Positions 9,408 to 59,148 of a stretch of 64,000 nucleotides of DNA are shown in pieces (position 1 is the first letter of the stretch; each line of letters begins with the position of its first letter). The position numbers were made by a program, and so were the translations under genes. The notes below the pieces were generated by a model. It was not told the origin of the DNA, searched no databases, and was given only the letters and a program-made list of their open reading frames with translations. Origin of the DNA: an uncultured Planctomycetales bacterium (lineage in GTDB: Bacteria; Omnitrophota; Gorgyraeia; Zapsychrales; JANLHA01); assembly GCA_964474085.1 (NCBI GenBank), contig CAYYRJ010000012.1, positions 7,701 to 71,700 of the forward strand, given 5' to 3'.

Positions 9408-10385
9408 ATGATGTATAATTCGTCCATGAAAACAAAATTCTTTATAGGAATCGACGTAGGGGGAACAAAAATTGCGGCAGCCATCATTTCCCCTGCCGGA
9501 AAAGTTCTCACCCGCGCTAAAACTTCGACACCTGCTAAAGCCAAACCTGCGCTGATCCTTGCGCTTATTCTGGAGCTTATCGAACAAATCATCCGGGAGA
9601 AAAATCTTTCCAGCAAACAATTAGCCGGCATTGGCATTGGAGTCCCAGGAATCGTCGACAGCCACAACCACATTCTTGCAACGCCCAACATCAATTTGGC
9701 TGGTTTTCCGCTCTGCGCAAAGGTCAGCAAGAAATTTCATGTCAAAGTCGTCGCTGGCAATGACGTTAATCTTGGGCTTTTAGGCGAACAATGGCTTGGC
9801 GCCGGCAAAAAAGTAAAAAATATCATCGGGATCTTTCCAGGAACTGGTGTTGGCGGGGCGATTCTTATCGACGGGAAACTTGTTATCGGCACCCAAGGGG
9901 CCGCTGCCGAAATAGGACATATGATCCTCTGCCCCGACGGGCCAATATGTAGTTGCGGCAATCACGGCTGTCTGGAGGCCTTGACCGGCCGCTGGGCCAT
10001 TGAACGCGATATCCGCGCATCGATCGAACACGGCCGCAAGACATTGATCACGCAATTAACAAACGGAAAAATCGCTTCAATCAAAAGCAAATTTCTCAAA
10101 GCCGCCCTCAAAGCCAAAGATCCGCTAACCGTCGAAATCATGCAAAAAGCCGCACGGACACTGGGGTTTGCCTGCATTAATGTGCGCCACATTTTCAATC
10201 CTCAGCTGATTATTTTAGGAGGCGGGGTGGTTGAGGCCTGCGGTGAATTTTTGCTGCCGATTATCAATAAAACGTTTCACGCTGATCCCTTTTTTGCCAA
10301 AATCGATAAATGCAAAATCGCCGCTTCCTCGCTCGGTGACGATGCCGTCGTCTTAGGCGCTGTGGCGCTGGTCAAAAAATCCTAA
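9408..10385 (+). CDS. ROK-family sugar kinase (glucokinase-like)
   Basis: GIDVGGTK N-terminal motif and a Cys-rich zinc motif (CSCGNHGCLE); AAGGA RBS. Confidence 0.8.
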   Translation: MMYNSSMKTKFFIGIDVGGTKIAAAIISPAGKVLTRAKTSTPAKAKPALILALILELIEQIIREKNLSSKQLAGIGIGVPGIVDSHNHILATPNINLAGFPLCAKVSKKFHVKVVAGNDVNLGLLGEQWLGAGKKVKNIIGIFPGTGVGGAILIDGKLVIGTQGAAAEIGHMILCPDGPICSCGNHGCLEALTGRWAIERDIRASIEHGRKTLITQLTNGKIASIKSKFLKAALKAKDPLTVEIMQKAARTLGFACINVRHIFNPQLIILGGGVVEACGEFLLPIINKTFHADPFFAKIDKCKIAASSLGDDAVVLGAVALVKKS

Positions 10386-29127: not shown

Positions 29128-30948
29128 ATGAACAGGCCATCAGTCGGCAAAGGCAAGTCCCAAAACCAAAAATTAATCAAATGGGTTGAAGAAGTCGCAG
29201 AACTCACACAGCCAGAACGCATCCACTGGTGCGACGGCAGCCAGGAAGAAACAGACCTCCTTTTAAAGGAAATGGTCGCATCCGGCATGGCAACCAAGCT
29301 CAACGAAAAATTACGCCCCAACAGCTTTTTGTTCCGCTCTGATCCTACCGACGTCGCTCGCATGGAAAACCGCACATTTATTTGTTCGCAAAAGCCCGAA
29401 GACGCAGGCCCCACCAATAACTGGATGGACCCCAAAGCGATGCGCAGCGAACTCAACGGTGTTTTTAAAGGCTCGATGAAAGGCCGCACGATGTACGTCA
29501 TCGCCTTTAGCATGGGGCCGATCGGCTCGCCCATTTCGCACATCGGTGTCGAATTGACTGATTCGCCTTACGTCGTCGTTAATATGCGTATCATGACCCG
29601 CATCGGACAAGCCGTTTTTAATCTGCTCGACAAAGACAACAGTATTTTTGTGCCGTGCATCCACTCTGTCGGTCATCCACTTGAACAAGGCCAAAAAGAT
29701 TCGTCTTGGCCGTGCAACAAAGAAAAAAAATATATCGTCCATTTTCCGGAAACACGCGAAATCTGGTCTTACGGCAGCGGCTACGGCGGAAACGCGCTTT
29801 TGGGCAAAAAATGTTTTGCCCTTCGTATCGCTTCCTGCATGGCACGCGATGAGAATTGGATGGCTGAGCACATGCTTATCTTAGGCGTCGAAGACCCCAA
29901 GGGTGAAAAAACCTATGTTGCAGCGGCTTTCCCCAGCGCCTGCGGCAAAACAAATTTTGCCATGCTTATTCCGCCAAAAAATTTTCGCGATAAGGGATGG
30001 AAAGTTTGGACAGTCGGCGATGATATCGCGTGGATCAAGCCCGGTGCCGACGGAAAACTTTATGCGATTAACCCTGAAGCCGGTTATTTTGGGGTCGCTC
30101 CCGGAACTTCTGAGAAATCAAATCCAAATGCTATTATTTCGTGTTCCAAGAACAGCATTTTTACCAACTGCGCTTTGACGCCCGAGGGGGATGTCTGGTG
30201 GGAAGAAATGACTCCAACCCCGCCAGCTAAAGCCATTGACTGGACCGGACAAGAATGGACGCCCGGCTGCGGACGCTTGGCCGCACACGCTAACGCTCGC
30301 TTTACCGCGCCTGCCTCTCAATGCCCGACGATAGACCCAGCGTGGGAAGATCCTAAAGGTGTGCCGATCAGCGCATTTATTTTTGGCGGCCGACGCGCCA
30401 GCGACGTTCCTTTAGTCTTTCAAGCCTTCAATTGGTCGCACGGGGTTTACTTAGGCGCGACCATGGGTTCAGAAATGACGGCCGCTGCCATCGGCGGCGC
30501 AGGACAACTGCGTATCGACCCGTTTGCTATGATCCCCTTCTGCGGGTATCACATGGGTGCATATTTCCAACACTGGTTAAAAATTGGCAAATTAACAACA
30601 TCTGCTCCTCGTATTTTTCACGTCAACTGGTTTCGCAAAAGCGCTGAAGGCAAATTCCTTTGGCCGGGCTTTGGCGAAAACATGCGTATTTTAAAATGGA
30701 TCGTTGACAGCGCAAACGGCCGTGCCGCTTGCCAAGAAACGCCGCTTGGCTGGGTGCCGCGTTATGAAGACATCGATTGGGAAGGTGTTACGTTCACAAA
30801 AGATCAATGGAATGAAGTTATGCGCATCGATCGAAAGAAATGGAAGGAAGTTTTAACGCTTCAACATGAAGAAAGCTTCCTTAAAATTCATGATCGCCTG
30901 CCCAAAGAACTGATTTGCGAACGCGAACTTTTAATCTCACGACTGTAA
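29128..30948 (+). CDS. pckG: Phosphoenolpyruvate carboxykinase (GTP)
   Basis: GTP-PEPCK motifs ([22 protein letters not shown], kinase-1a region); GGAGG RBS 5 nt before the ATG at 29128. Confidence 0.9.
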
Positions 30949-30959
30949 TCTCACAAAAA

Positions 30960-30992
30960 ACCCGCTGTGCGGCCTAAAAACCGCCAGCGGGT
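30960..30992 (-). terminator. Intrinsic terminator hairpin shared by the convergent pckG and UPF0316 genes (minus-strand reading is followed by a T6 tract)
   Basis: acccgctg [gcgg..ccgc] cagcgggt nested stem; AAAAAA on the plus strand gives U6 on the minus-strand transcript. Confidence 0.5.
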
Positions 30993-31024
30993 CTCTTAAA
31001 AAATCACCATATTTATACCTAAGT

Positions 31025-31102
31025 TGATCGGATAAGTCCTTTTAGGCTCAATTGTTTGGCGCCTCTATGGCGCTATTCGCCTAAAAAGGACTTCCCCGAT
31101 CA
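31025..31102. repeat. Hairpin repeat element, copy A (conserved core GGCTCAATTGTTTGGCGCCTCTATGGCGC(A/T)ATTCGCC, flanked by unique complementary arms)
   Basis: Core shared with the copies at 32349..32436 and 43844..43925; arms TGATCGGATAAGTCCTTTTAGG / CCTAAAAAGGACTTCCCCGATCA are reverse complements of each other. Confidence 0.7.
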
Positions 31103-31127
31103 TCTTACTTTCAAACGGTGAAACCTC

Positions 31128-31703
31128 TTACGCCTTATAATTTCTATTTCCAAAATTTGATTGAATCGGGAAAATTCCTTCGCTAGCTGACTTGACGTCC
31201 TCGACGGTATAAAACGCGCGCGGATTAAATTTTTTGATAATGCCAATCACTTTCTGATGATGACGCCGCGGGACAATTGTAAAAATAATCTGCACTTTTC
31301 CCGTCGAGCCATTAGCATCCACACTCGTTGTCCCATACCCTTGGGAAGAAAGTGAGTTGACGAGTTCCAACCCATCGGTTTTCGAAATAATCCGAATGAC
31401 TTCAAGACCGACAGCCAGCTTTTCCTCCAGGATAATGCCGACATAATTGCCCATCGCAAAGCCAGCCGAAAACCCAATATACACAAACGGGTTTGTCAAA
31501 TTATTCATAATCTGGCGAATCGCCAAAAGCCAGATAAGCGCTTCAATAAAGCCGATGACCGGAGCGATAATCCGACGACCACGATACAAAAGAATAAGCC
31601 GCACCGTACACAAAGAAACGTCACAAATGCGCGCTAAAAAAATCAGAAGCGGCATAATCAAATATTGAAACCACACACTATCTAAAAAGGGATGTTCGAT
31701 CAT
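31128..31703 (-). CDS. UPF0316/DUF2179 family membrane protein
   Basis: Three TM helices followed by a DUF2179-like C-terminal domain; start at MIEHPFL (the longer ORF extension overlaps the marC-like gene). Confidence 0.65.
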   Translation of the reverse strand: MIEHPFLDSVWFQYLIMPLLIFLARICDVSLCTVRLILLYRGRRIIAPVIGFIEALIWLLAIRQIMNNLTNPFVYIGFSAGFAMGNYVGIILEEKLAVGLEVIRIISKTDGLELVNSLSSQGYGTTSVDANGSTGKVQIIFTIVPRRHHQKVIGIIKKFNPRAFYTVEDVKSASEGIFPIQSNFGNRNYKA

Positions 31704-31714
31704 AGGACAAAACT

Positions 31715-32317
31715 TTAGAGAGGTTGACCCGGCCAATGGCCAAGAATAATTTCTAAAATCCCGCGACGCATCATCATGACCGCAATCGCGGCTAAAAACA
31801 ACGCAAAAACTTTCGACAAAGCATTCGCCCCCGCTTTGCCCAGAATGCGAATAAAACCGTCCGAAAAAACAAATACCACTCCGGCAAAAAGAATATTGAC
31901 CAAAACCGCCGCAATCGTCAAAACAGCACCATGTTGATCGACGCTGATAAGGCACGTCGTCAAAACCGCAGGGCCGACCATAAGCGGTGTGCCGATAGGG
32001 ACCGCGCCAAGCTCAGAAGCCGGCAAACGTTCCTGCTTTGTCGGCATCAGAAGATCCAGCATCGCAATACAAAACAAAATCGCCCCGCCGGCAATCATAA
32101 AATCCGCGATCGTAATTCCCAAAAATTTAAAAACCGCACGGCCCATGGCAATAAAGCCGACCGCCAAACACGTCGCCGTTACAATCGACTGGACAATAAT
32201 TTTATTTTTTGTTTTAAAATCCGTATCAGAAGTCAGCGAAACAAAAATCGGGAGCAAACCAATCGCATCGACAGCCACAAAAATCGGAATAAACGCCAAC
32301 AAAAATTCTGCAAACAT
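31715..32317 (-). CDS. MarC-family (UPF0056) integral membrane protein
   Basis: 200-aa polytopic protein with the MarC N-terminus (FIPIFVAVDAIGLLPIF). Confidence 0.75.
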   Translation of the reverse strand: MFAEFLLAFIPIFVAVDAIGLLPIFVSLTSDTDFKTKNKIIVQSIVTATCLAVGFIAMGRAVFKFLGITIADFMIAGGAILFCIAMLDLLMPTKQERLPASELGAVPIGTPLMVGPAVLTTCLISVDQHGAVLTIAAVLVNILFAGVVFVFSDGFIRILGKAGANALSKVFALFLAAIAVMMMRRGILEIILGHWPGQPL

Positions 32318-32348
32318 ATCCCCTCACTTTTATTCTAATACTTTTACT

Positions 32349-32436
32349 ATGAACGGACATAGCAGCCCTTTACGGCTCAATTGTTTCGCGCCTCTATGGC
32401 GCAATTCGCCTTAAAAGGGCTGCCACGTCCGTTCAT
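32349..32436. repeat. Hairpin repeat element, copy B
   Basis: Same core (GGCTCAATTGTTTCGCGCCTCTATGGCGCAATTCGCC) with different but mutually complementary arms (ATGAACGGACATAGCAGCCCTTT / TAAAAGGGCTGCCACGTCCGTTCAT). Confidence 0.7.
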
Positions 32437-32543
32437 CTACATGTTCATGTTTATTTATACCGTAGAATCTGATGAAAATCTATAGACCTAAAATCTATTT
32501 GGGAGTAGTATTTAAATTCAATATCAACCAAAAACGAACTCCT

Positions 32544-34235
32544 ATGATATTCACAAACGAATACGAACCAAAACTGATCACTGTCCTTAAAGAAGGGTAC
32601 TGCTTAAAAACCTTTTATAAGGACTTTATCGCCGGGGTCATCGTCGGAATCGTCGCTTTACCGCTTTCGATTGCCTTTGCCATCGCCTCCGGCGTTAAAC
32701 CCGAACAAGGCCTCTACACTGCTGTTATCGCCGGATTTCTTATTTCGTTTTTAAGCGGCAGCCGTGTGCAAATCGGCGGGCCTACCGGAGCTTTTATCGT
32801 CATCGTTTACAGCATCGTCGAAAAGTTTGGCTACGACGGCTTGGCCCTTGCGACAATCATGGCGGGCATCCTTCTTATTTTTATGGGAATCGTGCGTTTA
32901 GGCGAGGTCATCAAATATATTCCGTACCCTGTTACCGTCGGATTTACCAGCGGCATTGCCGTAATAATTTTCACAACACAAGTCAAAGAATTTTTAGGCC
33001 TCAACATTCCAACACCTGAACATTTTATTCCCAAATGGATCGCCTATGCCCAAAACCTGATTTCTTTTGATCCTTGGAGTCTGACGCTTGGGGCGATGAC
33101 CATACTCATTCTTGTTTTTTGGCCGAAGCTTACGCACAAACTCCCCGGGCCGCTTATTGCAATCTTTTTTACGACACTGCTTGTCCAATTTTTTCATTTG
33201 CCCGTAGCGACGATCGCCAGCCGTTTTGGCGAAATCCCAAACACGTTCGTCAAGCCGCATATTCCGCATGTGAGCTTTGAACTCTTAGGACAGCTTTCGT
33301 CTTCCGCGCTTGCCATCGCCTTGCTAGCGGGAATCGAATCGCTGCTTTCTGCCGTCGTGGCCGACGGGATGACAGGAAGAAAACATCGCTCCAATATGGA
33401 ATTAATCGCCCAAGGCGTTGCGAATATTATTTCGCCGATTTTTTCCGGTCTGCCGGCAACAGGGGCTATCGCGCGAACGGCGACTAATATCAAAAGCGGC
33501 GGGCAGACGCCGTTTGCGGGCATCATTCACGCGGTCACAATTTTGCTCATTTTTCTTCTTTTTGGAAAATGGGCCGGCTTAATCCCGATGGCCACGCTCG
33601 CCGGAATTTTAATCGTCGTCGCCTATAAGATGAGCGAATGGCGGCTGTTCGTCAAACTTTTTAAAAGCCCGAAAAGCGATATCCTCGTTCTCTTAATTAC
33701 GTTTCTTCTTACCGTGCTTATCGATTTAACCGTTGCGATTGAAGTCGGCGTTGTCCTTGCTTCATTTTTATTTATGCGCCGCATGGTTGATGTGACAGAA
33801 ATCAAATCGATTACAAAATTTATCAATGAAGATACCCGGACAGATCTTTCGGATAATCCCAACGATGACCCTAATGCGATTGCCGCACGCAAAATTCCCG
33901 TCGGCGTTGAGGTTTTTGAAATCAACGGGCCTTTCTTTTTTGGCGCGGCCGATAAATTTCGCGACACGATGCGCGAAATTCAAAAGCCGCCTAAGGTTCT
34001 GATTTTAAGAATGCGCCATGTGCCGACCATTGACGCAACCGGTTTGCGAGCACTTGAAGATACGCTTGAAAAAGCCAAAAAAGACGGAATTACGATTCTA
34101 CTTGCTGCAGCGAATGCGCGGCTGATGCGAAAACTCAATAATAGCGGAATGACCGAGCGGATCGGGACACAAAATATTCTCTTGGAAATCGACGACGCTT
34201 TAGAGTACGCCCGCAAAATTCTCAAAAATAAATAA
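32544..34235 (+). CDS. SulP-family anion transporter with a C-terminal STAS domain
   Basis: SulP TM core (PLSIAFAIASGV...) and STAS domain (VFEINGPFFFGAADKF); start chosen at MIFTNEYEP. Confidence 0.85.
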   Translation: MIFTNEYEPKLITVLKEGYCLKTFYKDFIAGVIVGIVALPLSIAFAIASGVKPEQGLYTAVIAGFLISFLSGSRVQIGGPTGAFIVIVYSIVEKFGYDGLALATIMAGILLIFMGIVRLGEVIKYIPYPVTVGFTSGIAVIIFTTQVKEFLGLNIPTPEHFIPKWIAYAQNLISFDPWSLTLGAMTILILVFWPKLTHKLPGPLIAIFFTTLLVQFFHLPVATIASRFGEIPNTFVKPHIPHVSFELLGQLSSSALAIALLAGIESLLSAVVADGMTGRKHRSNMELIAQGVANIISPIFSGLPATGAIARTATNIKSGGQTPFAGIIHAVTILLIFLLFGKWAGLIPMATLAGILIVVAYKMSEWRLFVKLFKSPKSDILVLLITFLLTVLIDLTVAIEVGVVLASFLFMRRMVDVTEIKSITKFINEDTRTDLSDNPNDDPNAIAARKIPVGVEVFEINGPFFFGAADKFRDTMREIQKPPKVLILRMRHVPTIDATGLRALEDTLEKAKKDGITILLAAANARLMRKLNNSGMTERIGTQNILLEIDDALEYARKILKNK

Positions 34236-34248
34236 ACTTCTTATCTGC

Positions 34249-34354
34249 GCCGTGCTGTTATAGTATCCCGCGCTCAAACAATGTCTCGCGTTGTCCCGCT
34301 GATTGGGCGGGACTATGCTCGCCAAACTCGCACGGGACACCATAACAACACGGC
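34249..34354. repeat. Long imperfect inverted repeat (about 26-bp arms) with internal GC-rich hairpins, between the convergent SulP and ABC-F genes
   Basis: GCCGTGCTGTTATAGTATCCCGCGC ... GCGTGCCCTGTGGTATTGTTGTGCCG-type complementary arms; an inner stem gtcccgc/gcgggac. Confidence 0.4.
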
Positions 34355-34370
34355 TTAAACTACGCAACGT

Positions 34371-36002
34371 CTAAACTTTCAATTTTTCTTCGTAAAGATC
34401 TTCGCGACGTTTGTGGATTTCGGGGTCAGCGAGATATTCATCGAGGGTCGTGTGGACACGGTCAATATGGCCGTTGGGAGTAAGTTCAACAATACGATTG
34501 GCGACAGTCTGAATAAACTGATGGTCGTGCGAGGAAAACAAAATCGCATTGTCACATTTGATCAGTCCGTTGTTTAAGGCAATAATCGATTCCAAATCCA
34601 AGTGATTCGTCGGGTCATCAAAAATAAGCGCATTGGCACTTGCTAACATCATCCGCGAAAACATGCAGCGCACCTTTTCCCCGCCGGACAAAACGCGCAC
34701 AATCTTAAGCGTTTCTTCACCCGAAAAAAGCATTTTCCCCAAAAAGCCGCGGATAAAATTTTCGTCCTTTTCCTTAGAATACTGACGCAGCCAATCAATA
34801 AGGTTCAAATCAGATTGAAAAAAACTTGAATTATCTTTTGGAAAATACGCCGTTGAGATCGTTGAGCCCCATTTGAACATCCCGCTGTCAACGGCAAGCT
34901 CGCCGGCGAGAACCTGAAAAAGCGTTGTCGCCGCCGAATCATTGCGACCAATAAAAGCAATCTTATCCTCTTTGCTGACATGCAAAGAAAAATCCTTAAA
35001 CATCACCTTGCCTTCAATAGTTTTGCTTATTTTTTGGATATCAAGGATATCATTGCCCGCCTCACGCTCGGGCTTAAAAGAAATAAACGGATAACGCCGC
35101 GACGAAGGGCGGATTTCTTCGAAGGTCAGTTTTTCCAAAACTTTTTTGCGGGAAGTCGCCTGTCGAGACTTGGACGCATTCGCGCTAAAACGGGCGATAA
35201 AGTCCTGCAGTTCTTTACGTTTTTCCTCGGACTTGCGATTGGTTTCCTGCTTCTGACGCAAAGCTAATTGGCTGGCCTCCAGCCAAAACGTGTAATTGCC
35301 CGTGTACAACTGCACTTTTCCAAAATCGATATCCGCAATATGCGTGCAAACTTGATCTAAAAAATGGCGGTCGTGCGAAACAACAATCGCCGTATTTTGA
35401 AAATTGCACAAAAATTCTTCCAGCCACAAGGCTGTTTCGACGTCGAGCTGATTGGTCGGTTCGTCCAAAAGCAAAATGTCGGGATTACCAAACAACGCTT
35501 GTGCTAAAAGCACGCGGACCTTCTGGCCGCCTTCAAGCTGTTTCATCTTTAAACTGTGAAGATTTTCTTTAACGCCCAAATCGCTTAACAGCCGTGCGGC
35601 CTCGCTCTCAGCATCCCAGCCGTTCATCTCGGCAAATTGACCTTCCAACTCGGATGCACGAATCCCATCAGCGTCAGAAAAATCCGGCTTGGCATAAATT
35701 GCGTCTTTTTCGGACATGATTTCAAAAAGTTTCTTATGACCCATGACAACCGTCAAAAGAACTTGATGTTCGTCAAAAGCGTATTGATCTTGCTTAAGGA
35801 TAGATAACCGCTCGCTTTTGGTGATGCTGACTGTCCCTGTGGTCGGTTCAATTTCGCCGGAGAGAATTTTTAAAAAAGTAGACTTTCCCGATCCGTTAGC
35901 GCCGATTAGGCCATAACAGTTGCCGGGTTTAAATGCGGCGGTCGCACCCTCAAATAAACGGCGCTTGCCAAATTGCAGTGATACATTTTCGACGGATAAC
36001 AT
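34371..36002 (-). CDS. ABC-F family ATPase (tandem ABC domains, EttA/Uup-like)
   Basis: Two Walker A motifs (GANGSGKST; GRNDSAATT) and two ABC signature motifs in 543 aa, with no TM domain. Confidence 0.85.
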   Translation of the reverse strand: MLSVENVSLQFGKRRLFEGATAAFKPGNCYGLIGANGSGKSTFLKILSGEIEPTTGTVSITKSERLSILKQDQYAFDEHQVLLTVVMGHKKLFEIMSEKDAIYAKPDFSDADGIRASELEGQFAEMNGWDAESEAARLLSDLGVKENLHSLKMKQLEGGQKVRVLLAQALFGNPDILLLDEPTNQLDVETALWLEEFLCNFQNTAIVVSHDRHFLDQVCTHIADIDFGKVQLYTGNYTFWLEASQLALRQKQETNRKSEEKRKELQDFIARFSANASKSRQATSRKKVLEKLTFEEIRPSSRRYPFISFKPEREAGNDILDIQKISKTIEGKVMFKDFSLHVSKEDKIAFIGRNDSAATTLFQVLAGELAVDSGMFKWGSTISTAYFPKDNSSFFQSDLNLIDWLRQYSKEKDENFIRGFLGKMLFSGEETLKIVRVLSGGEKVRCMFSRMMLASANALIFDDPTNHLDLESIIALNNGLIKCDNAILFSSHDHQFIQTVANRIVELTPNGHIDRVHTTLDEYLADPEIHKRREDLYEEKLKV

Positions 36003-36112
36003 AAATTTATTGTTTAGATGATTAATAAAGGCAGGATTATAGCATAAAATCCCAAAAGCAAAGATAATTCGTCAAAACTGCTTTATTTACAAAAATTTTA
36101 GATCTGTGAATT

Positions 36113-36149
36113 TTAAAAAAGTAGGGAACGGTTTGAAACCGTTCCCTAC
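36113..36149 (-). terminator. Rho-independent terminator of the large secreted-protein gene
   Basis: 11-bp GC-rich stem gtagggaacgg/ccgttccctac, followed on the minus strand by TTTTTT. Confidence 0.55.
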
Positions 36150-36169
36150 CGTCTTTTCTATTATCGCCG

Positions 36170-39100
36170 TTACCTCATCGACAATTCAGGGACCTTTTCT
36201 TTATTTTCAGCGCTGATCAAAAACGGAAAATTCTCAATCGTCGCCGGCTGCATATTGATAATAACCGGATACAACCCGTCAATATTGATGCTTTCTAAAT
36301 TTTGCTGCGGCAGAGGAAGCGGCACGCCGTGTCCGTTGCGCTTGATCTGCAAATTAAGCAAAGACGGATCAAAGTCAATACCACCGACCTTCTCGTCGCT
36401 TGAAGTCACTCCCGCACTTGCGACAGTGTAGACGACTTTGGCATCACTTTTCAATGACGTTAGTACAATGCTCCTTCCGTCAACAGCAAGCCGAACAAGT
36501 CCTGCGAATTCTTCGGGCTGATTGTCATTTTTCTCAAATGCAGACCTCACAAGTTTAAAGCTCCTGTTGCCAACTGCCTCATTTCCAAATAAAGGAATAA
36601 TATCAAAAGCTGGCTGACCATTTGCTATAAATTTCTTTTCTATCATCACCAAAATCTCTTGCCCGCTTTCAAGTTGAATGGTAAACGACAAATCTCCTTG
36701 TGTTGTCAAATCACCTAAACGCAAAACGGTAGGCTGATTAACGGCCAGCTTTTGCTCGTTGGCGGGGGTCATTTCTCTAATTTTATCAGCTAATTGTGCA
36801 ATTGGACGTTCAACAGGTTGCAACAAAACACCTTTCTCTTTTAATGCGTCAACCTGAGGGTCGTTTATTCTTGCGATAATCTCTCCAGGGGCAAGACCAA
36901 TTACCTTTGTTGTTGCTGGCAAATCGACTTTCCCTAGAAATTCGTTAATTGTTCCTAGCTTATCCGCCGCTCCTGCCTTTAAATTTGCAATGACAATAAT
37001 ATCGAAGTTCTGATGTTGAACAAAATCTTGCGCGGTACCTAGATCGGCGGCTCCGATAATATCATCTTGTCCATTTAAACTCTTGTCAAGTGCCCTACCT
37101 ATGAACTGATTGTCACTAATCAACAAAATCTTTCTCGCCTGATCAACTGCGTCGGATTGTGCGGCCTCGTTTGCCACACCTGCACTGCTGGCGACCGTCG
37201 CATCTGCGATGGCAGAGCTGGCGGCGGAAGCGTCCGCCATCTCTTGAGCTTTCGCTCTTTTAGCTATGACATCTGCTGGGTTACTGTGAATATCATTTAA
37301 TAACCCCATATATTGAGTTATTGGCCCGAAGTTTTCTGGTTGAAAAATATTCGCGCCCCTTGAAAAATATCTAGAAACAAATTTTAAGAATAATCCTGTT
37401 AATCCCGCATCTTGTAAAAAGGCATCACTAATGGGATTAGCTTGCTGCGAACGTGGAGAATAATCAAAAATACCATTCTCCCTTACATAACGTTCTACAG
37501 CAGGAGACATAAAATAATAGCTTTTATTTTCACGGATTGCCGTTGCAGACACATTGTCAATAGGGTACAGCTCAGGAGAATCAATTTTAAAATGATCACC
37601 AACCAATTCCCGTAATTTTGCTATTTTTTCATTAATTGTTTTTATCTGCTCGTCTCTAGAGGTGCCATTATCTTCAATACGCGGAATGATAAAAGCTTCC
37701 ATTTCAAAAAGGTCAGGATCAAATCCAAAAAGACGAGCATCCATGTTATCTACCAACTTCTTGGCACTATCCGATTGCGCAATCTTTTGTTGCTTTAACT
37801 GATCTATCACTGCTTGGGCCGAGATCTCGGGGAATTGTTTAAACAATCTCTCCTTTAAAATTGCCTCATCACTTAATTCACCAGCTAAGAGCTGAGCCTT
37901 TAAACCATAAAGAAATTGAGCAATTTCCCTAGCCTCTTGAATATCCTTTAAAGCTTTCCCAACGCCAGCAATATCTTTGAGCATATCTGTCAATTCATTA
38001 ACACTAGCTTGTCGTATAACCTTCAACCCTTCATGCATTTTAGAAGGAAGCGTCCAATCAACATGATCTGAACCAAAAACATACCTTAGTTTTATTTTTA
38101 TCCCTGCATCTTTGAGTCTCTTAATGTTCTCTGGACCAAGCCTTGCCACCAATTCTGCTCCAAATAAAAACACATTATATTCTCCATCCCGGTCAGTTCT
38201 CTTATTTTCTCTAGCATATTCGGTTGCTTGATCGAGAACTCTTGTAGAAACATCAGACACACCTAAAATTCCCAATACTGTTTCTCCGCGAATTCCTTCA
38301 CTAACCATTTTTTCTCTCTCTGAATAAGGCAATAATCCCTTTCTTCTAGGATCATCAGCTGCAAGAACAAAAAACATAGCTCCCCCAGATTCTACCGCCG
38401 CCAAAGCACCAGCATCGTGCGCAATAGTAAAAGGGTATCCTGTTATTGCATAATTTGCCAACCTATATCCTTTATTAGCTAGAAAAATACTCATTAACCT
38501 TTCGGTAGATTCTTGAGTCGCAGGTTTGGAAAGAATCGCTAATACCTCTGCGCGTTCGGGAGATTCTCCAATATTCTTTAATTTATTTAATGAATACGCT
38601 GATTGAAGTAATAAAACTTCCCTCTCCTTAGCTTCCTGGCTGACTAAGTCGTCCGTACTACTTGGCTCTTCCCAAGACATCCTTATCAGCTGGCTTGCAA
38701 TGATTTCAGCCATAAACCTTGAAATTTTCTCAGCAGGATTTATTTTATCTAAACCTTTGACTACTGCTTTCTTGTTCAAAGGTACTTCCGCTGCCACACG
38801 ACGATCAACACCTAAACGTCTCTCTACTGGCTCAACCTTTTGCTGCTCTACCAATAGTTTATTAATCTTCTTTAATTCACTAACAAAAGCGGCTGGGGCT
38901 TCCTCAACTGATGCGTTTAATAATGGTGTCCAAATGGCTGATATCAAAAGCCGAATTACAGATTTATTTTTATTTATTTCAGTGATGATTCTCCTTACGT
39001 TTAAATCTTTAATTTCAATCTCAGAAATCGTTTTGACAAACTCTATAAATATCCCAACAGTGTTTGTATCTACAAGTGTCTTTGCTATGTCCTGACGGAT

Positions 39101-40429
39101 ATTTTTTTGTTCTCCAATTTGAATATTTCTAACAGCCTGTTCTATTAATTTTACTGACTTCTTTTCAAAGTTTTCAACCGACGCGCTGGCCACCGCCGCC
39201 TGCACTGCCTGCTCTTCTTTTGGCTGTTCGGCTGTTATGACACCAGCTGACGCAAAACGATTATCCTCTATAGCTTTTTGAATGCTTCTTGAAATCTCAG
39301 TTTTCTTTGCAACTGATTCGGGAACCTTAAGAACTTTATTTGTTGCCTTCCAATCAAACCCCCCCGAAAAATATTTGCGCGGCAGGGTCTCTTTGCTGGC
39401 TAAATCGTAGTCTTCCTTAATGAGGTTATAGACACCTTTGCGAAAAGCGGCCAAATACTGTTCATACACCTTTTGCTTAAGGTCTTTTTCGCCGATATTG
39501 ACACCAGCGATCTTGCTTTTGTCGACGTAAATTTTTCCCAAAAGGGAATTTTTTAAATTCTGTTTATACCACGTCGCCAAAATGACCGAGTGATAGATTT
39601 GGCGCACCGCGGCAAAGTTTTTGCCTTCATTGATTTCTTTTTCAAGTTCAGGAAGGATGATTTGACGGACAACTTCCGAAGACACAGAGCTTAACGCCTC
39701 AGCCTTGTCTTGCGAAACATTCTTGCCGCTCAACTTTTCGCTCTTTAAATTTTCTTTCAAAGACGTATAATCTTGATCCAACATCACTTTCAAATGGCTC
39801 TCGCCGATAAAAACATAGCCGTCTTCTTCGAGGATGAGCGCGCGATCTGGAACAATCCACACCTTATTAAAGGTATTGATCGGAATCGAAGTTGTGCCGA
39901 ATTTTTCGTAAGCTTTTTTGTAAACCGTGTCCCAAAACTTTTTGCCGATTTCTTCTTGCGGATTAGTCAACGACGCCGAAAGTTGCTTAAGAAGATAATC
40001 CTGCTCGAGCATTTGCTTGCCCATATCCGTCGAGCCAAGCATGTCAGGAATAATGCGGTCGCCTTCATAGGGAGAAAGATTGACCCACGAATCATTGTCG
40101 GGAATCGTCATTGCAGCCAAGAAATATTTCAAAAGCTTCTGCGTTTCGCCCTTGAGAGCATCTCCGGAAAGCTTATCCTGTCCGCGGTCAACGATAAAAT
40201 CAAATTGCAGCGGATTCTCAGGATGCAGCGTCATCCCCTTTAAGACCGGCGGCTGAAAGGCCGGGCTCAAAAGGACCATTTCCCCAGGTTTTGGAAGATT
40301 GCTGATATATTGCGCGTTTGCGCCTGTTGCGGGTCCGAAAATCAAACTTACCGAAAAAGTGAACGCGACAAAACTACTCGTTATTTTTTTCATCCAGCGA
40401 GACTTTTTGGGGTAAACGAAATCGGACAT
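36170..40429 (-). CDS. Large secreted protein (about 1417 aa) of unknown function
   Basis: AAGGAG RBS 7 nt before the ATG at 40429; signal peptide MSDFVYPKKSRWMKKITSSFVAFTFSVSLIFGPATGANAQ; no recognisable catalytic motifs; Ala/Ser-rich linker and Rossmann-like segments. Confidence 0.6.
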   Translation of the reverse strand: MSDFVYPKKSRWMKKITSSFVAFTFSVSLIFGPATGANAQYISNLPKPGEMVLLSPAFQPPVLKGMTLHPENPLQFDFIVDRGQDKLSGDALKGETQKLLKYFLAAMTIPDNDSWVNLSPYEGDRIIPDMLGSTDMGKQMLEQDYLLKQLSASLTNPQEEIGKKFWDTVYKKAYEKFGTTSIPINTFNKVWIVPDRALILEEDGYVFIGESHLKVMLDQDYTSLKENLKSEKLSGKNVSQDKAEALSSVSSEVVRQIILPELEKEINEGKNFAAVRQIYHSVILATWYKQNLKNSLLGKIYVDKSKIAGVNIGEKDLKQKVYEQYLAAFRKGVYNLIKEDYDLASKETLPRKYFSGGFDWKATNKVLKVPESVAKKTEISRSIQKAIEDNRFASAGVITAEQPKEEQAVQAAVASASVENFEKKSVKLIEQAVRNIQIGEQKNIRQDIAKTLVDTNTVGIFIEFVKTISEIEIKDLNVRRIITEINKNKSVIRLLISAIWTPLLNASVEEAPAAFVSELKKINKLLVEQQKVEPVERRLGVDRRVAAEVPLNKKAVVKGLDKINPAEKISRFMAEIIASQLIRMSWEEPSSTDDLVSQEAKEREVLLLQSAYSLNKLKNIGESPERAEVLAILSKPATQESTERLMSIFLANKGYRLANYAITGYPFTIAHDAGALAAVESGGAMFFVLAADDPRRKGLLPYSEREKMVSEGIRGETVLGILGVSDVSTRVLDQATEYARENKRTDRDGEYNVFLFGAELVARLGPENIKRLKDAGIKIKLRYVFGSDHVDWTLPSKMHEGLKVIRQASVNELTDMLKDIAGVGKALKDIQEAREIAQFLYGLKAQLLAGELSDEAILKERLFKQFPEISAQAVIDQLKQQKIAQSDSAKKLVDNMDARLFGFDPDLFEMEAFIIPRIEDNGTSRDEQIKTINEKIAKLRELVGDHFKIDSPELYPIDNVSATAIRENKSYYFMSPAVERYVRENGIFDYSPRSQQANPISDAFLQDAGLTGLFLKFVSRYFSRGANIFQPENFGPITQYMGLLNDIHSNPADVIAKRAKAQEMADASAASSAIADATVASSAGVANEAAQSDAVDQARKILLISDNQFIGRALDKSLNGQDDIIGAADLGTAQDFVQHQNFDIIVIANLKAGAADKLGTINEFLGKVDLPATTKVIGLAPGEIIARINDPQVDALKEKGVLLQPVERPIAQLADKIREMTPANEQKLAVNQPTVLRLGDLTTQGDLSFTIQLESGQEILVMIEKKFIANGQPAFDIIPLFGNEAVGNRSFKLVRSAFEKNDNQPEEFAGLVRLAVDGRSIVLTSLKSDAKVVYTVASAGVTSSDEKVGGIDFDPSLLNLQIKRNGHGVPLPLPQQNLESINIDGLYPVIINMQPATIENFPFLISAENKEKVPELSMR

Positions 40430-40649
40430 AGGGGATCTCCTTGTAAAGTTAAATAAAACTGTAATGGGAAATTTTTTAGAACAGAGAATTAGACTTTGCA
40501 CGACTGTAAAAAGAATATCACAAAGATATCAGCGCCGCAATCGTTAAAACAAAAGAATACAAAAATAATAGTTTGCAAGCTTATTAATTGCAAACACTTA
40601 TAAAAAAATTATTGGCAATGTATGCCTTATGTATTAATTATGCACAGGC

Positions 40650-41255
40650 TTATAGAATTTCTTTAAACGCAGGGTGATTGATGATAAGCGCCAAAGCTTT
40701 AGTCAAGAGCGTTTTGCCAGGCTCTTTGCGATGCCAAGGCGAAGCGCCCGAAGGATGAGGGAGGGGAATCACGTCGTACAAAATACCGTTTCGCCGAATC
40801 GAGAACTTGCGGCCGATCATCGCATCAAGATTTTCCAAAGGGAGAAACTGGCCGATCGCCAATTTCCCAACGGGAATAAGCAATGCCGGTTTTAAAATTT
40901 TTAATTCCGCGTTTAGCCAACGCGAACAGTTTTCGATTTCCTCTGGGCTAGGGACACGATCGCCGCCGCTTTCCTTTTTTCCGGGGAAACAACGGCAGAC
41001 GGCGGCAAAATAAATTTTCTGACGAAATTGTTCTTCGGTTAATCCTGACGCCTCATAAAACCATTTAAACAATGTCTTTCCAGCTGTCCACGCAAACGGA
41101 CGACCAAATTTTGGTTCCTTGTCGCCGGGCGCCTGACCGATAAGAATGACGCGGCTATTGATCGGCCCGCCGCTGACCGGTGGCGCGTGCATTTTAGGAC
41201 AGAGGCGACAAGCCTTTAAACGACTGATATGATTTTTAAGGTGTTTATACATCAT
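40650..41255 (-). CDS. Uracil-DNA glycosylase, family 4
   Basis: CRLCP...GQAPGDKE...GRPFAWTAGKTL motifs; start taken at MMYKHL (alternative start at 41279). Confidence 0.8.
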   Translation of the reverse strand: MMYKHLKNHISRLKACRLCPKMHAPPVSGGPINSRVILIGQAPGDKEPKFGRPFAWTAGKTLFKWFYEASGLTEEQFRQKIYFAAVCRCFPGKKESGGDRVPSPEEIENCSRWLNAELKILKPALLIPVGKLAIGQFLPLENLDAMIGRKFSIRRNGILYDVIPLPHPSGASPWHRKEPGKTLLTKALALIINHPAFKEIL

Positions 41256-41280
41256 CACTGTCCAAATTAAACTTCCCATC

Positions 41281-41381
41281 CCCCTCGAGACTGGGTCAGA
41301 TGAGGGGCAATTTGAAAAGTGGATTCCCGCTTTCGCGGGAATGACAAAAGAGGTAGTGTCATCCCTGCGAAAGCAGGGATC
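41281..41381. repeat. Cluster of three small palindromic hairpins, two of them GNRA-looped (REP-like)
   Basis: cccctc..gagggg; attcccgc-TTTC-gcgggaat; atccctgc-GAAA-gcagggat; they account for the repeat-derived VIPAKAGIH translation in the extended UDG ORF. Confidence 0.5.
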
Positions 41382-41425
41382 CAAAATTTAAGCGGACTTC
41401 TCTAAGCGCTAAACAATTACATGTT

Positions 41426-42847
41426 CTAATACTTAATCCGCACGCGGTAACGAACCTTCACTTCCCCATCCTTAGGGACATCGACATCAAAACGAGCGGT
41501 AAAAGCATCCACCTTCGTAAACTTCTGGGACTGGCTTAAAACCGTCCAGTCGCCGGGAATCGTTTCTAAAACCTGCACCGCAATATCTGTATCCTTATGA
41601 TTGCGTATCGTCACTTCCCACTCGGATTCATGGCCGCGGTTGATATTCTGATAATCGGTTTGCACACGCTCTGCAACCACATCAAACGCCTCTCCGATTT
41701 TCAAATCCACATCTTCATCTTTAGGCGTGTGCTTGATCGCATCCTCGCCGATAAACTGCAAACTGTCATTCGCATCCGCCTTATACAAGCGCATCGTCCC
41801 GGCGGGAAGCGGAAAACCCATATGATTTTCTTTCGAATTTCTAAATTTCAACATTACCTGTACCGGCACTTTGCCGGTTTCATTGTAAGGCCCGTACCAC
41901 CAGCTATTCTGGCCTTGCACTTTAAAAATTTTTGTTACGCTCGCATCATTGGCTTCCAAAAGACGAATCTGCTTAGTCTGCAAATCTTTAATCGTCGTCG
42001 GATGCTGAAGATCATAAAGGTGATATTCAAAAAACGATTGCTCCGCAAAACCACTGCCCACGCTATCAGCTACCATCGTATTTTTGGTCATCATTTGTTC
42101 CCGATACCTCATCGCATTATCATTGACCCGATTAACTTCTCCGGCCACAAGTTTTAGCTTCGCATTTTTATAAGTGGCCCCGCTTTTGTTGTCCAGCGTC
42201 ACCCAGCCGCTAACGTTGGCCTTCGCATCATTTTTGTCAATGACGACGACATAATCCGCTTTCCATGAAATATTCTGCGTCAAATATGAAACCTCAATGC
42301 TCTGGGGCGACGCGAATTTGTTCTCATACATCCACGTCAAAGTCGGCTTGGCAATCAAGTCGTCGGGCAAAGACGGCAAAATGACCTGCCCCGGATAACC
42401 AATATGAATTTCATTGCCGATTCTGTAAATCTGGCCTTGATTATTACTCAAAAGTTCCGCTTCAACCGTTTCGCTTTTATCTTGGAATTGATTGCGAGTA
42501 ATCAGTTTTAACTTTTTGCCGACATATTTATCCAAAAGCTTGGTCGAATTCATCAAATCATATTCATAATTCTGCTCAAGAATCGAAAAGTCCTGCGGGG
42601 CATTAAGCGACCGGATTGCGACGGTAAAAGGTTGAATAAAAGCCGCCACATCCATAAACTGCATATTCCCGTCGCCTTCAGGCAGCTTAATTTTGCGCGT
42701 GTCTTTGACTAATCCAAGATTCGAGTTATAAACCGTCACTTCAACTGACTCTTGATCGCGCAATGTGCTCGTCAAATCCATGGCCGCAAAAGCGGCTGAC
42801 GCACCAAGAACAAACATGACACCGACTAAACTTTTTAAAATTTTCAT
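41426..42847 (-). CDS. DUF4139 domain protein (mucoidy-inhibitor MuiA-like), secreted
   Basis: Signal peptide; DUF4139/DUF4140-like N-terminal pattern (VTVYNSNLGLVKDTR...). Confidence 0.7.
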   Translation of the reverse strand: MKILKSLVGVMFVLGASAAFAAMDLTSTLRDQESVEVTVYNSNLGLVKDTRKIKLPEGDGNMQFMDVAAFIQPFTVAIRSLNAPQDFSILEQNYEYDLMNSTKLLDKYVGKKLKLITRNQFQDKSETVEAELLSNNQGQIYRIGNEIHIGYPGQVILPSLPDDLIAKPTLTWMYENKFASPQSIEVSYLTQNISWKADYVVVIDKNDAKANVSGWVTLDNKSGATYKNAKLKLVAGEVNRVNDNAMRYREQMMTKNTMVADSVGSGFAEQSFFEYHLYDLQHPTTIKDLQTKQIRLLEANDASVTKIFKVQGQNSWWYGPYNETGKVPVQVMLKFRNSKENHMGFPLPAGTMRLYKADANDSLQFIGEDAIKHTPKDEDVDLKIGEAFDVVAERVQTDYQNINRGHESEWEVTIRNHKDTDIAVQVLETIPGDWTVLSQSQKFTKVDAFTARFDVDVPKDGEVKVRYRVRIKY

Positions 42848-42873
42848 TCCCTAGCCTCCTTGATGTTAAGTTA

Positions 42874-43065
42874 AACCCAAATTTTGCATTACAATCCATT
42901 GCGCGACGATCCGTCGCGCACAAAAAGGCAAATGCAAAATTTGCCTTCGGTTGTCCCACAGGGACAAGGTTAACCCCGCACGTCTCGACGGTGTCGAGAC
43001 ATGCGGCCCTTTGGGCGGATTTTGCTTGACCTCGCAGAAGCGAGGCAAATGCAAAATCCGGGTTA
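42874..43065. repeat. About 190-nt structured element: five GC-rich hairpins flanked by 17-nt imperfect inverted repeats, with an internal GGCAAATGCAAAAT direct repeat
   Basis: Hairpins gcgcgacg/cgtcgcgc, ggcaaat/atttgcc, ttgtccc/gggacaa, ccgcacgtctcgac/gtcgagacatgcgg and cctcgc/gcgagg; flanks aacccaaattttgcatt / aatgcaaaatccgggtt. Confidence 0.45.
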
Positions 43066-43077
43066 AAAACTTGATCA

Positions 43078-43812
43078 TTACTCTACCACTTTTTCACTGT
43101 CCTTGCGATGGCGAATTGACTGAGCCGGAATCCCAAACCACACGTCCCGCGCTTCGACTTTGGTGTCCTTAAGTAGCACAGCGCTGGCCCCAATAATCGC
43201 ATTATCCCCAATTTCACAGCCGGGCATAATCGTGCAGTGAGAGCCGACAGTAACATTTTTGCCAATCACAACTTTCTTAAGTTTCAATTTTCCCCGTTCG
43301 ACCAAATGCCCAATAATAATCGCCCCTCCGCCGACGACCGTGTTGTCGCCGATTTCCAAGAGAGACGCATCATAAACAAATTTGGAATTAAACTGCACAT
43401 TTTTGCCTAACTTGGCACCGAGCAATCGAAAAAGCAAATTCGCAAAAGGCGTAAGCAAAACAAAATCAATAAAGGTGTAATTAATCATCAAGTACAATGA
43501 GCTAATAAACGCCCATTTGAATGCTTCCAAGGAAACAAGCGGATAAACGCCTTCTTTCAAGCGCAAGTTAAGCGCCGTTCGAAATATTCCGACCAAAACA
43601 ATCAGCGTCAGACCAAAAATAAAATAGCCCAAAGCGATGCTTGTTCCCAAAAAGAACAAACGCGGCCAAAGAGACATTTCACCCGTCGACATCCAAACTT
43701 TCATGACGAGCGCCAAACCCGGCATAAGCGCTGCACCAAAAAACAGCGCCCCAAACGCATACATAAAAACAGTAAATGCCGCCTGAGCCAAAGTCATCAG
43801 TAACCACGCCAT
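43078..43812 (-). CDS. Membrane-anchored hexapeptide-repeat (left-handed beta-helix) acyl/acetyltransferase
   Basis: Four N-terminal TM helices followed by hexapeptide repeats (IGDNTVVGGGAIIIGH..VVIGKNVTVGSHCTIMPGCEIGDNAIIGASAVL). Confidence 0.65.
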   Translation of the reverse strand: MAWLLMTLAQAAFTVFMYAFGALFFGAALMPGLALVMKVWMSTGEMSLWPRLFFLGTSIALGYFIFGLTLIVLVGIFRTALNLRLKEGVYPLVSLEAFKWAFISSLYLMINYTFIDFVLLTPFANLLFRLLGAKLGKNVQFNSKFVYDASLLEIGDNTVVGGGAIIIGHLVERGKLKLKKVVIGKNVTVGSHCTIMPGCEIGDNAIIGASAVLLKDTKVEARDVWFGIPAQSIRHRKDSEKVVE

Positions 43813-43843
43813 ACGATCCTCCTGTTTATTGTGATTCTATCCT

Positions 43844-43925
43844 GGTGATTGGGAAAGCCCTTTTAGGCTCAATTGTTTGGCGCCTCTATGGCGCAATTCG
43901 CCTTAAAAGGGCTTTCCCAATCACC
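43844..43925. repeat. Hairpin repeat element, copy C
   Basis: Same core (GGCTCAATTGTTTGGCGCCTCTATGGCGCAATTCGCC); arms GGTGATTGGGAAAGCCCTTTTAGG / CCTTAAAAGGGCTTTCCCAATCACC are perfectly complementary. Confidence 0.7.
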
Positions 43926-43946
43926 TTAACTTACATATCACATTAC

Positions 43947-57372: not shown

Positions 57373-57508
57373 AAAAAATCCTATTCTTTATTTGCTTCAC
57401 TCATAAAGAATAGGACGTAAAGATCTCTCAATCTTTGGCAACTGGCTGCCCTTCGCATCGCGTGAGGGCCCTTTAGCTTTGTGTCCCATTCTTACGAATG
57501 GTTTACCT
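57373..57508 (-). promoter_or_regulatory. Candidate c-di-GMP-I (GEMM) riboswitch aptamer plus intrinsic terminator in the paralog 1 leader
   Basis: The minus-strand RNA GGUAAACCAUUCGUAAGAAUGGGACACAAAGCUAAAGGGCC... closely matches the Vc2 GEMM core GGCAAACCAUUCGAAAGAGUGGGACGCAAAGCC; it is followed by the hairpin gtcctattcttta...taaagaatagga plus U6. Confidence 0.55.
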
Positions 57509-57677
57509 TGATCCGATTAAACACTACATGTCGAGTATAGAATGTGTATCCATGCTATGCAAGAGAACAAATATAAAAATAATGGCCCATAAATCATTGA
57601 TATAAAAACACTTACGAATAAATCATAAAATTTAATCATAAGAAAAATTAAATATGTTAAATCAAATTCTTTTTAAT

Positions 57678-58942: not shown

Positions 58943-59073
58943 AAAATAAAAAATCCTATTCTAGAGAATTCGCAAGAATAGGACAAAGGGACCTTTGGCT
59001 CGGCAACTGGCTACCCTTCGCGATCGCGTGAGGGCCCTATAGCTTTGTGTCCCATTCTTACGAATGGTTTACC
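58943..59073 (-). promoter_or_regulatory. Second copy of the candidate GEMM riboswitch plus terminator, in the paralog 2 leader
   Basis: Same aptamer core; the differences from copy 1 keep the predicted pairing (cgcgatgcg versus cgcgatcgcg); terminator gtcctattcttgcgaattctctagaataggaTTTTTT. Confidence 0.55.
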
Positions 59074-59148
59074 TTTTCGGTCAACTACGCTAAAAGTATA
59101 AAATACGAACAGGCCCTGCGCAAGGGCCTGTATGATAATAGAGAAAGC

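Follow-up and report, generated by a model that had tools for sequence, protein, structure and literature searches.

A hairpin repeat family, probably of foldback transposon origin, specific to one clade of Candidatus Omnitrophota

ERIC/IRU, RUP, BOX, SMAG and Nezha are small, non-coding repeats that are bounded by terminal inverted repeats (TIRs), occur in multiple intergenic copies and can fold as RNA, and these families are recognised by the overall sequence similarity of their copies. The Correia element of Neisseria, a transposable element of the miniature inverted-repeat type (MITE), binds IHF and is cleaved by RNase III (PMC2649163). Compensatory changes are common in the hairpins of REPINs, whose proposed active form is a hairpin in single-stranded DNA (ssDNA) or mRNA (PMC3116915). 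Inverted repeats are also subject to polymerase template switching between their arms, which is reported to homogenise the arms and invert the spacer (PMC8604942, PMC7202029, PMC5941160). The elements described here are three hairpins in a 64-kb stretch of DNA (the window, 64,000 nt of contig CAYYRJ010000012.1) from an uncultured bacterium that is labelled Planctomycetales and assigned by GTDB to the Omnitrophota. They are copies of a small non-coding mobile repeat that is found only in one clade of Omnitrophota and forms a new family within a well-known type of element. Like ERIC/IRU and the other families named with it, the repeat is TIR-bounded, multi-copy, intergenic and RNA-foldable. The three hairpins are probably old copies of a non-autonomous foldback transposon, that is a MITE, specific to this clade of Candidatus Omnitrophota.

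The three hairpins share a core that is not expected by chance, and their arms are less exactly complementary, and less different between copies, than had been described. The 37-nt core GGCTCAATTGTTT(G/C)GCGCCTCTATGGCGC(A/T)ATTCGCC occurs three times in the window, always on the + strand (Table 1), as had been recognised from the letters of the window by an earlier model-made reading (the sequence-only reading). Neither this core, even with three mismatches tolerated, nor the inner palindrome GCGCC-TCTAT-GGCGC that the same reading had pointed out is expected in shuffled sequence (expectation 0 for both). The three copies fold at -42 to -57 kcal/mol with z = -8 to -11, and none of 200 shuffles equals them. 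The arms had been described as exact reverse complements within a copy. This is essentially correct for copy 3, where 22 of 23 stem positions match and a single A is bulged at the junction, and incorrect for copies 1 and 2, each of which has four mismatches and one gap over about 26 positions. Nor do the arms differ completely between copies, as had been claimed. Their inner 8-10 nt (CCCTTTTA / TTAAAAGGG) are common to all three window copies, so the conserved unit is about 57 nt, and family-wide most arms are variants of a single consensus, ..GCYGATTTGGGAAGTCCTTTTTAGG. The possibility that the arms are acquired guide or spacer sequences was set aside because of this shared consensus. Away from the junction, the mismatches of copy 2 read as A.C on the + strand and as G.U on the - strand, and for this reason the two strands differ in folding energy, with -57.4 kcal/mol for the - strand and -46.2 kcal/mol for the + strand.

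The core defines a family of about 90 copies, spread over some ten Omnitrophota assemblies. When 185,579 species-representative genomes were scanned for exact matches to 21 bases of the core, 74 loci were returned. All are in seven metagenome-assembled genomes (MAGs) that carry the label Candidatus Omnitrophota or 'uncultured Planctomycetales', and a single MAG has as many as 33 copies. Exact-core copies number 79 across the seven MAGs and the window, JGI metagenomes contain six additional copies, and more were reached via neighbouring proteins. A covariance model (R1) built from 71 copies finds these three copies and no others in the window. Among the loci fetched from related assemblies, which are designated by L-numbers (L005, L089 etc.), the model added two copies with a diverged core and found eight copies interrupted by contig ends, as is typical of repeats. 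Two of the 79 copies lie inside a heuristic open reading frame (ORF) and the remainder lie in short spacers between ORFs. No copy matches Rfam at the gathering threshold, and permissive Rfam searches gave generic miRNA-precursor hairpins alone, at no more than 26 bits against thresholds of 37-149 bits. A known RNA family is ruled out on these grounds, the permissive matches being generic hairpin noise. A scan of viral contigs for the core gave no match, which disfavours a phage origin, and a search of the literature on Omnitrophota combined with MITE or REP terms found no described interspersed repeat family. The suggestion of a REP/MITE-like repeat family has thus been borne out by the number of copies in related genomes, by the stem covariation described below and by the lack of an Rfam match.

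The intact copies have the organization of a MITE. An intact element is 120-143 bp long and has outer TIRs (ACGCCGTGTGCAAGTT ... AACTTGCACAYCGCGT), which enclose a 20-28-bp stem of variable sequence and a conserved inner stem (CCUUUU/AAAAGG, GGC/GCC). At the centre is the asymmetric 37-nt core with its 5-bp apical hairpin, and insertion is marked by an AT-rich target-site duplication of 7 bp. In the JANPFV genome all 12 copies lie within a 140-143-bp unit that has the outer TIRs and an asymmetric 24-nt segment, and in the CAZWOH subfamily identical TIRs are found immediately outside the stem, giving an element of 120-121 bp. A clear outer TIR pair, with a summed left and right score of at least 24 of 32, is present in 15 of 74 copies, and 14 copies score at least 11 of 16 on both sides; with the TIRs placed in the wrong orientation as a control, the summed score never rises above 20. 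Counted as raw flank matches, the 7-bp duplication is perfect in L006 (TAATTTA) and L032 (TATTAAA), becomes perfect in L004, L015 and L070 after a 1-nt boundary shift made by eye, and matches at six of seven positions in L020, L035 and L043. Short length, TIRs, a target duplication, multiple scattered copies and polymorphism for presence or absence jointly identify the element as a MITE.

Most copies have lost recognisable ends, and the hairpin survives this decay. TIR similarity is at background level in 52 of the 74 copies. Copies with a high TIR score and copies at background have equivalent stems, 23.5-24.1 bp in length with 85.5-87.9% Watson-Crick pairing, so that a unit of about 98 nt, consisting of the stem and the 37-base centre, stays intact, which is considered unusual. 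Two TIR-less copies (L017 and L051) are orthologous to L032, which has TIRs and a perfect duplication, and they keep a remnant of the 24-nt segment. The TIRs of the three window copies are remnants at best. To the right of copy 3 there is a probable remnant that by eye matches the intact right end TTAACTTGCACATCGCGTTA of L005, L068, L070 and L071 at 16 of 20 positions. The TIR-less orthologues and this remnant suggest that the window copies are old insertions in which the hairpin was kept and the ends were lost.

Comparison of orthologous loci shows that sites can be occupied, decayed or empty. Three relatives were examined at the position of copy 1; none has a counterpart there, and in two of them the downstream neighbour is a different one. 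The copy 2 orthologue in L054 has the same arms and flanks that are 94% identical, the one in L049 is interrupted by a contig end, and the one in L091 is decaying, with different arms, three core changes and a broken stem. The copy 2 site is empty in L092 and L093. At the otherwise empty site of L092 (about 9893-9912) there is a string, CGATTTGGAAATTC, which resembles the family arm consensus and may be the solo-arm remnant of a lost copy. Copy 3 is identical and in the same orientation in L081, a second assembly of the same strain; its orthologues in L082/83, L084/85 and L086 also have the same orientation, and L089, whose two flanking genes overlap, has an empty site. A further empty site is found at 7776-7787 of L005, which corresponds to the occupied site of L019. 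None of these empty sites (L005 compared with L019; L089; L092 and L093) contains a hairpin, which rules out insertion of the core into pre-existing terminator hairpins. Arms copied from flanking DNA are ruled out for L019/L005. At the site shared by L002b, L042 and L062 a second hairpin family is nested or substituted, from which it follows that the spacers act as hot spots.

The stems covary strongly, and the changes are of a kind that suggests a mutational mechanism. In the 71-sequence alignment the outer helix is 90% paired, and 18 of its 22 pairs have double changes. Across the full structure the paired cells make up 92.2%, compared to 78.3% in shuffles, and there are 286 double-change cells where 79 are expected; none of 500 shuffles reaches the pairing or the double-change value. 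When the pairing register is shifted, the paired fraction falls to 56% or less. The covariation therefore extends well beyond the three copies from which it had been read. Relatives of the copy 3 locus were obtained via a neighbouring protein, so that their sampling is independent of the core, and their stems show AA/UU to CC/GG and G-C to U-A swaps in either direction, with half-converted intermediates in sister lineages. In other orthologues G:C and C:G pairs are exchanged and there are probable compensated indels, as read by eye. By a hand count from hit strands, about half of the orthologous pairs differ in the orientation of the core relative to the flanking genes, and in JANPFV the core orientation relative to the asymmetric 24-nt segment is 8:4.

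Both arm homogenisation and spacer inversion can occur without selection, and both are seen in this family, so the covariation is unsafe as proof of selection for a hairpin. The sequence-only reading had concluded that there is such selection, and template switching is reported to produce both signatures without it (PMC8604942, PMC5941160). The covariation is weak evidence for an RNA gene, and the family is a natural example of a more general point, namely that covariation in inverted repeats is not readable as RNA selection unless template switching has been excluded. In a foldback transposon, stem complementarity would be maintained mainly by arm-to-arm copying during replication. The same copying would invert the core, and it would account for the flip/flop orientation as well as for the transversions, which are compensated, and the indels, which probably are. 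Selection for pairing probably contributes as well.

The core is much more conserved than its surroundings at the locus where this could be followed. Across four lineages the core at the copy 3 locus differs from that of the window copy at 0-2 of 37 nt. The arms there differ at 2-4 of 17 positions each, and the adjacent spacer is about 22% diverged and has a 17-nt indel. Either purifying selection or gene conversion between copies would keep the core unchanged, perhaps because something recognises it. Some core variants are specific to a lineage and are common to all JANPFV copies or to all JADLGJ copies, old orthologous sites included, and for this reason gene conversion between copies, or re-insertion, competes with purifying selection as an explanation.

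The imperfections of the stem are biased toward one strand. Stem mismatches comprise 82 of the minus type and 12 of the plus type (about 7:1), and the favoured type is G.U or G.T when the stem is read on the strand with GGCGAAU...AAUUGAGCC (the window's - strand). The bias holds in both strata when copies are divided by gene direction (42:5 and 21:4) and by the sign of GC skew (51:5 and 28:7), which rules out the transcribed or replicated strand as its source. Independent recent wobble events demonstrated by hand number about 7-8 against 1. The orientation of the copies themselves is biased weakly, 32:18 relative to genes and 43:30 relative to GC skew. Such a bias cannot be produced by a symmetric double-strand process or by host-mRNA selection, which suggests that a folded single strand of fixed polarity is in use and points to a putative partner. 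Since G.U/G.T wobbles are kept on that strand only, the recognised form would be the strand reading GGCGAAUNGCGCCAUAGAGGCGCNAAACAAUUGAGCC (the - strand in the window). The best guess is a putative protein-binding hairpin that may affect neighbouring transcripts incidentally, by analogy with other hairpin MITEs. The core matches seven of nine positions of the IHF consensus, as read by eye; the match is lost in the JANPFV variant, and an IHF site in the core is a lead.

Several observations weigh against a foldback MITE shaped by template switching. In about 540 kb around the copies no autonomous insertion sequence (IS) with these TIRs and no repeated transposase or other repeated ORF family was found; the sole transposase seen there is an unrelated IS110-family gene in L082. 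Core conservation is in part ascertainment, since the copies were found with 21 exact core bases, and the core is not universally conserved, as shown by bystander copies that are truncated (L019), decayed (L021) or diverged (L062). Many wobble positions are shared within subfamilies, which brings the number of independent events far below 82. Template switching does not predict a wobble bias on a fixed strand. It also does not account for the greater arm divergence of flipped orthologues, which have 5-13 arm differences in 44 nt compared to 0-2 in unflipped ones at similar flank identity (at least 86%). Lastly, the link between hairpin and TIRs rests mainly on the graded TIR remnants and on the one orthologous trio of L017, L051 and L032, and it is conceivable that the TIR-less majority represents a separate hairpin module, captured by a TIR element in some lineages.

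Taken further, this last idea makes the hairpin with its core, about 98 nt, the module itself, maintained or propagated via a single-stranded intermediate of fixed polarity that a putative protein recognises at the core. On this view the flip/flop of the core, together with the rebuilding of an arm from its partner, would belong to the life cycle of the module, in formal analogy to hairpin termini that flip and flop, and the TIR element would be just one vehicle of the hairpin. This would jointly explain the context-independent wobble bias, the burst of compensated arm change at flips, the core variants that are specific to a lineage at orthologous sites, and the outlasting of the TIRs by the hairpin; it is considered quite unlikely. 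A cis-acting RNA hairpin exapted from the repeat, the next explanation to consider, is unlikely as well, with a better claim than the module. It would be transcribed in neighbouring mRNAs, its stem and conserved internal loops would form a recognition site for a protein or RNase, and it would stabilise mRNAs or be a site of their processing, a role that has been proposed for REP, ERIC and Correia elements. The wobble polarity and the conservation of the copy 3 core relative to its flanks would fit, and in all three window copies the wobble-tolerant sense is on the coding (-) strand, with copy 1 in a 3' untranslated region upstream of a terminator and copy 3 within an operon. As read by eye, the minus-sense core could also be drawn with a putative tandem G.A/A.G internal loop beside the apical hairpin. 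However, the polarity is unchanged where the flanking genes are reversed (the 21:4 stratum), and the mRNA there would carry the A.C version. The 32:18 orientation relative to genes, the flips between orthologues, the decay or absence of copies in close relatives, and the lack of an Rfam family and of a U-tract also argue against it. A small structured RNA gene, which had been suggested from the sequence, is not supported: its own promoter would not fit into the space available, and the orientation ratio and the decayed or absent copies count against it too.

Two explanations invoke a dedicated enzyme. A REPIN-like element would be moved as ssDNA by a single-copy HUH/Y1 transposase (RAYT or IS200/IS605-like) that recognises the folded core, and the absence of a multi-copy transposase nearby fits a single-copy domesticated enzyme. 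Intact copies nevertheless have TIRs and a 7-bp target duplication, which mark cut-and-paste elements of the DDE type and are not known from HUH transposition. The fixed-strand polarity, independent of transcription and replication direction, would suit such an element, as would a long hairpin with frequent compensatory changes like those of REPIN spacers (PMC3116915). The conserved part is central and is not a terminal REP 16-mer, the stem base has neither a GTAG/CTAC motif nor any other tetranucleotide in common, and a phmmer search of 1543 ORFs gave no Y1 transposase match below E = 0.1, a weak test with two approximate queries. This explanation is very unlikely. A programmed inverton, in which a recombinase flips the core between the inverted arms and so alters expression of a neighbouring gene, is extremely improbable. 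It would explain why the core is seen in either orientation, at orthologous sites as well as inside a single genome, but the invertible segment would span only about 37-45 bp, the arms differ between copies with no common recombinase site beyond the inner 8-10 bp, and no recombinase gene recurs beside the copies. A scanner detected no promoter-like site in copy 3 or beside it, reading by eye found none inside the core, and the two assemblies of the same strain have the same orientation. Spacer inversion is moreover a reported by-product of template switching (PMC8604942). A metagenome search with a pattern that allows both orientations of copy 3 gave no matches; with the other assembly of the strain identical, flipping at the population level is unsupported. 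Two known classes are also rejected. The sequence-only reading had argued against a simple terminator, and this stands: no T-run follows the stem on either strand, the scanner called no copy, and copy 1 has its own separate terminator downstream. An integron attC site, with conserved R''/R' boxes at the base of its stem, a variable apex and a place in cassette arrays beside intI, has the opposite layout (the apex is conserved and the base variable in this family), and the copies are single and dispersed between housekeeping genes.

The coordinates of the window elements are collected in Table 1.

Table 1. Hairpin copies and adjoining features in the window
Feature	Position	Strand	Basis
Copy 1 (c1), hairpin element of about 97 nt	31016..31112	-	Covariance model R1, 88.7 bits, E = 4.7e-18
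Imperfect stem of copy 1	31025-31044 / 31082-31102; core 31045-31081	-	Sequence and fold
Copy 2 (c2), locus-specific stem TGAACGGACATAGCAGCCC / GGGCTGCCACGTCCGTTCA, core 32374-32410	32345..32441	-	R1, 86.4 bits
Copy 3 (c3), near-perfect 22-bp stem 43844-43865 / 43903-43925, core 43866-43902	43837..43933	-	R1, 98.2 bits
Probable decayed outer TIR of copy 3 (TTAACTTACATATCACATTA)	43926..43945	+	Reading by eye; weak, inferred
Intrinsic terminator adjoining copy 1, separate from the repeat	30958..31000	-	Stem ACCCGCUGGCGG...CCGCACAGCGGGU, then UUUUUUG

The three copies occur in the convergent, divergent and co-directional gene contexts that had been noted. Copy 1 lies between convergent PEPCK and DUF5698/DUF2179 genes, more precisely between the DUF5698/DUF2179 stop codon (31128, - strand) and the intrinsic terminator of the same operon. 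Copy 2 is in the divergent spacer of MarC (- strand) and SulP (+ strand), and copy 3 is between alpha/beta-hydrolase and hexapeptide-transferase genes, both on the - strand. The strong stem-loop between PEPCK and copy 1 is flanked on one side by an A-tract and on the opposite side by a T-tract, and it looks like a bidirectional intrinsic terminator. The segment containing it (30945-31012) folds at -37.9 kcal/mol with z = -9.1, and a simple terminator scanner missed it because of a one-base bulge.

Other repeats were seen in the window and in related loci. The second hairpin family has the same design as the first, with 22-bp variable complementary arms (GCCGTGCTGTTATAGTATCCCG / CGGGACACCATAACAACACGGC) around a different core of about 60-75 nt. 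It is found at 34251-34356 of the window, at 1418-1561 of L042 and in part near 4800-4860 of L062, and at one site it replaces or abuts the main family. Its - strand folds at -67.3 and its + strand at -50.0 kcal/mol, the same one-strand wobble effect. A multi-hairpin repeat of about 200 nt with inverted ends AACCCAAATTTTGCATT / AATGCAAAATCCGGGTT lies at 42868-43069 of the window and recurs in L050 (1679-1875), L045 (2424-2623), L012 (2868-3065), L071 (1-79) and L082 (13110-13160). Its 3' part (TTTTGCTTGACCTCGCAGAAGCGAGGCAAATGCAAAATC) resembles the leader directly upstream of the IS110-family transposase gene in L082, and judging from this resemblance the repeat may have arisen from that IS as a miniature derivative, perhaps from the non-coding RNA region of the IS. 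The gene itself (13234-14268 of L082; DEDD_Tnp_IS110 and Transposase_20 domains) is in a region syntenic with the window and is absent from the sister genome L084, the insertion being between AATTTGAT and TATATGTGAT, outside the hairpin repeats. A three-hairpin segment, ATTCCCGC-TTTC-GCGGGAAT ... TCCCTGC-GAAA-GCAGGGA, occupies the UDG/DUF4139 spacer at about 41290-41400 of the window and is partly repeated in L033 (3426-3483) and L012 (3966-4010); in L038 the same spacer has a copy of the main hairpin family instead. The window also has two c-di-GMP-I-GGC riboswitch aptamers (RF03167) on the - strand at 57433-57516 and 58998-59082, with 59.4 and 62 bits against a gathering score of 59. An ORF of 1443 aa at 36170-40501 (- strand) has no Pfam match at E <= 0.001, and parts of it have 65-75% DNA identity to ORFs in several loci (L018, L009, L048 and L016).

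The family opens no new class of system; it is a new family of hairpin MITEs. Its repeats break MAG assemblies, as the eight copies at contig ends illustrate, and they could act as strain markers. The fixed-strand wobble bias and the core conservation go beyond what a decaying MITE would have and are the parts worth following. Together they are a testable hint of a putative factor, of the host or of the element, that recognises the single-stranded hairpin, in a clade of Omnitrophota that is not yet genetically tractable.

Among known systems, the Correia element (CREE/NEMIS) is also a non-coding intergenic MITE, of about 100-150 bp, with inverted repeats around a conserved core, a long hairpin and either orientation beside genes. 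It belongs to another phylum and has no sequence similarity to the Omnitrophota family. In the latter the stem between TIR and core varies freely and covaries, and the target duplication is 7 bp and AT-rich, whereas that of CREE is TA. The other hairpin MITEs differ in that most Omnitrophota copies share the centre of about 57 nt alone, their stems having drifted while staying paired. REPs and REPINs are likewise extragenic hairpin repeats that persist vertically at orthologous sites and commonly acquire compensatory hairpin changes (PMC3116915). REPINs have conserved terminal REP units and a variable centre, while the Omnitrophota family is most conserved at its centre, has TIRs and target duplications, and showed no RAYT in the weak test described above. 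Quasipalindrome template-switch mutagenesis is reported to produce just this pair of signatures, arm homogenisation and spacer inversion (PMC8604942, PMC7202029, PMC5941160), but it is blind to sequence and leaves the core conservation and the fixed-strand wobble bias unexplained. Overall the closest architecture is that of the Neisseria Correia element and the closest population behaviour is that of the REPINs, and by sequence and defining features the Omnitrophota family is a member of neither.

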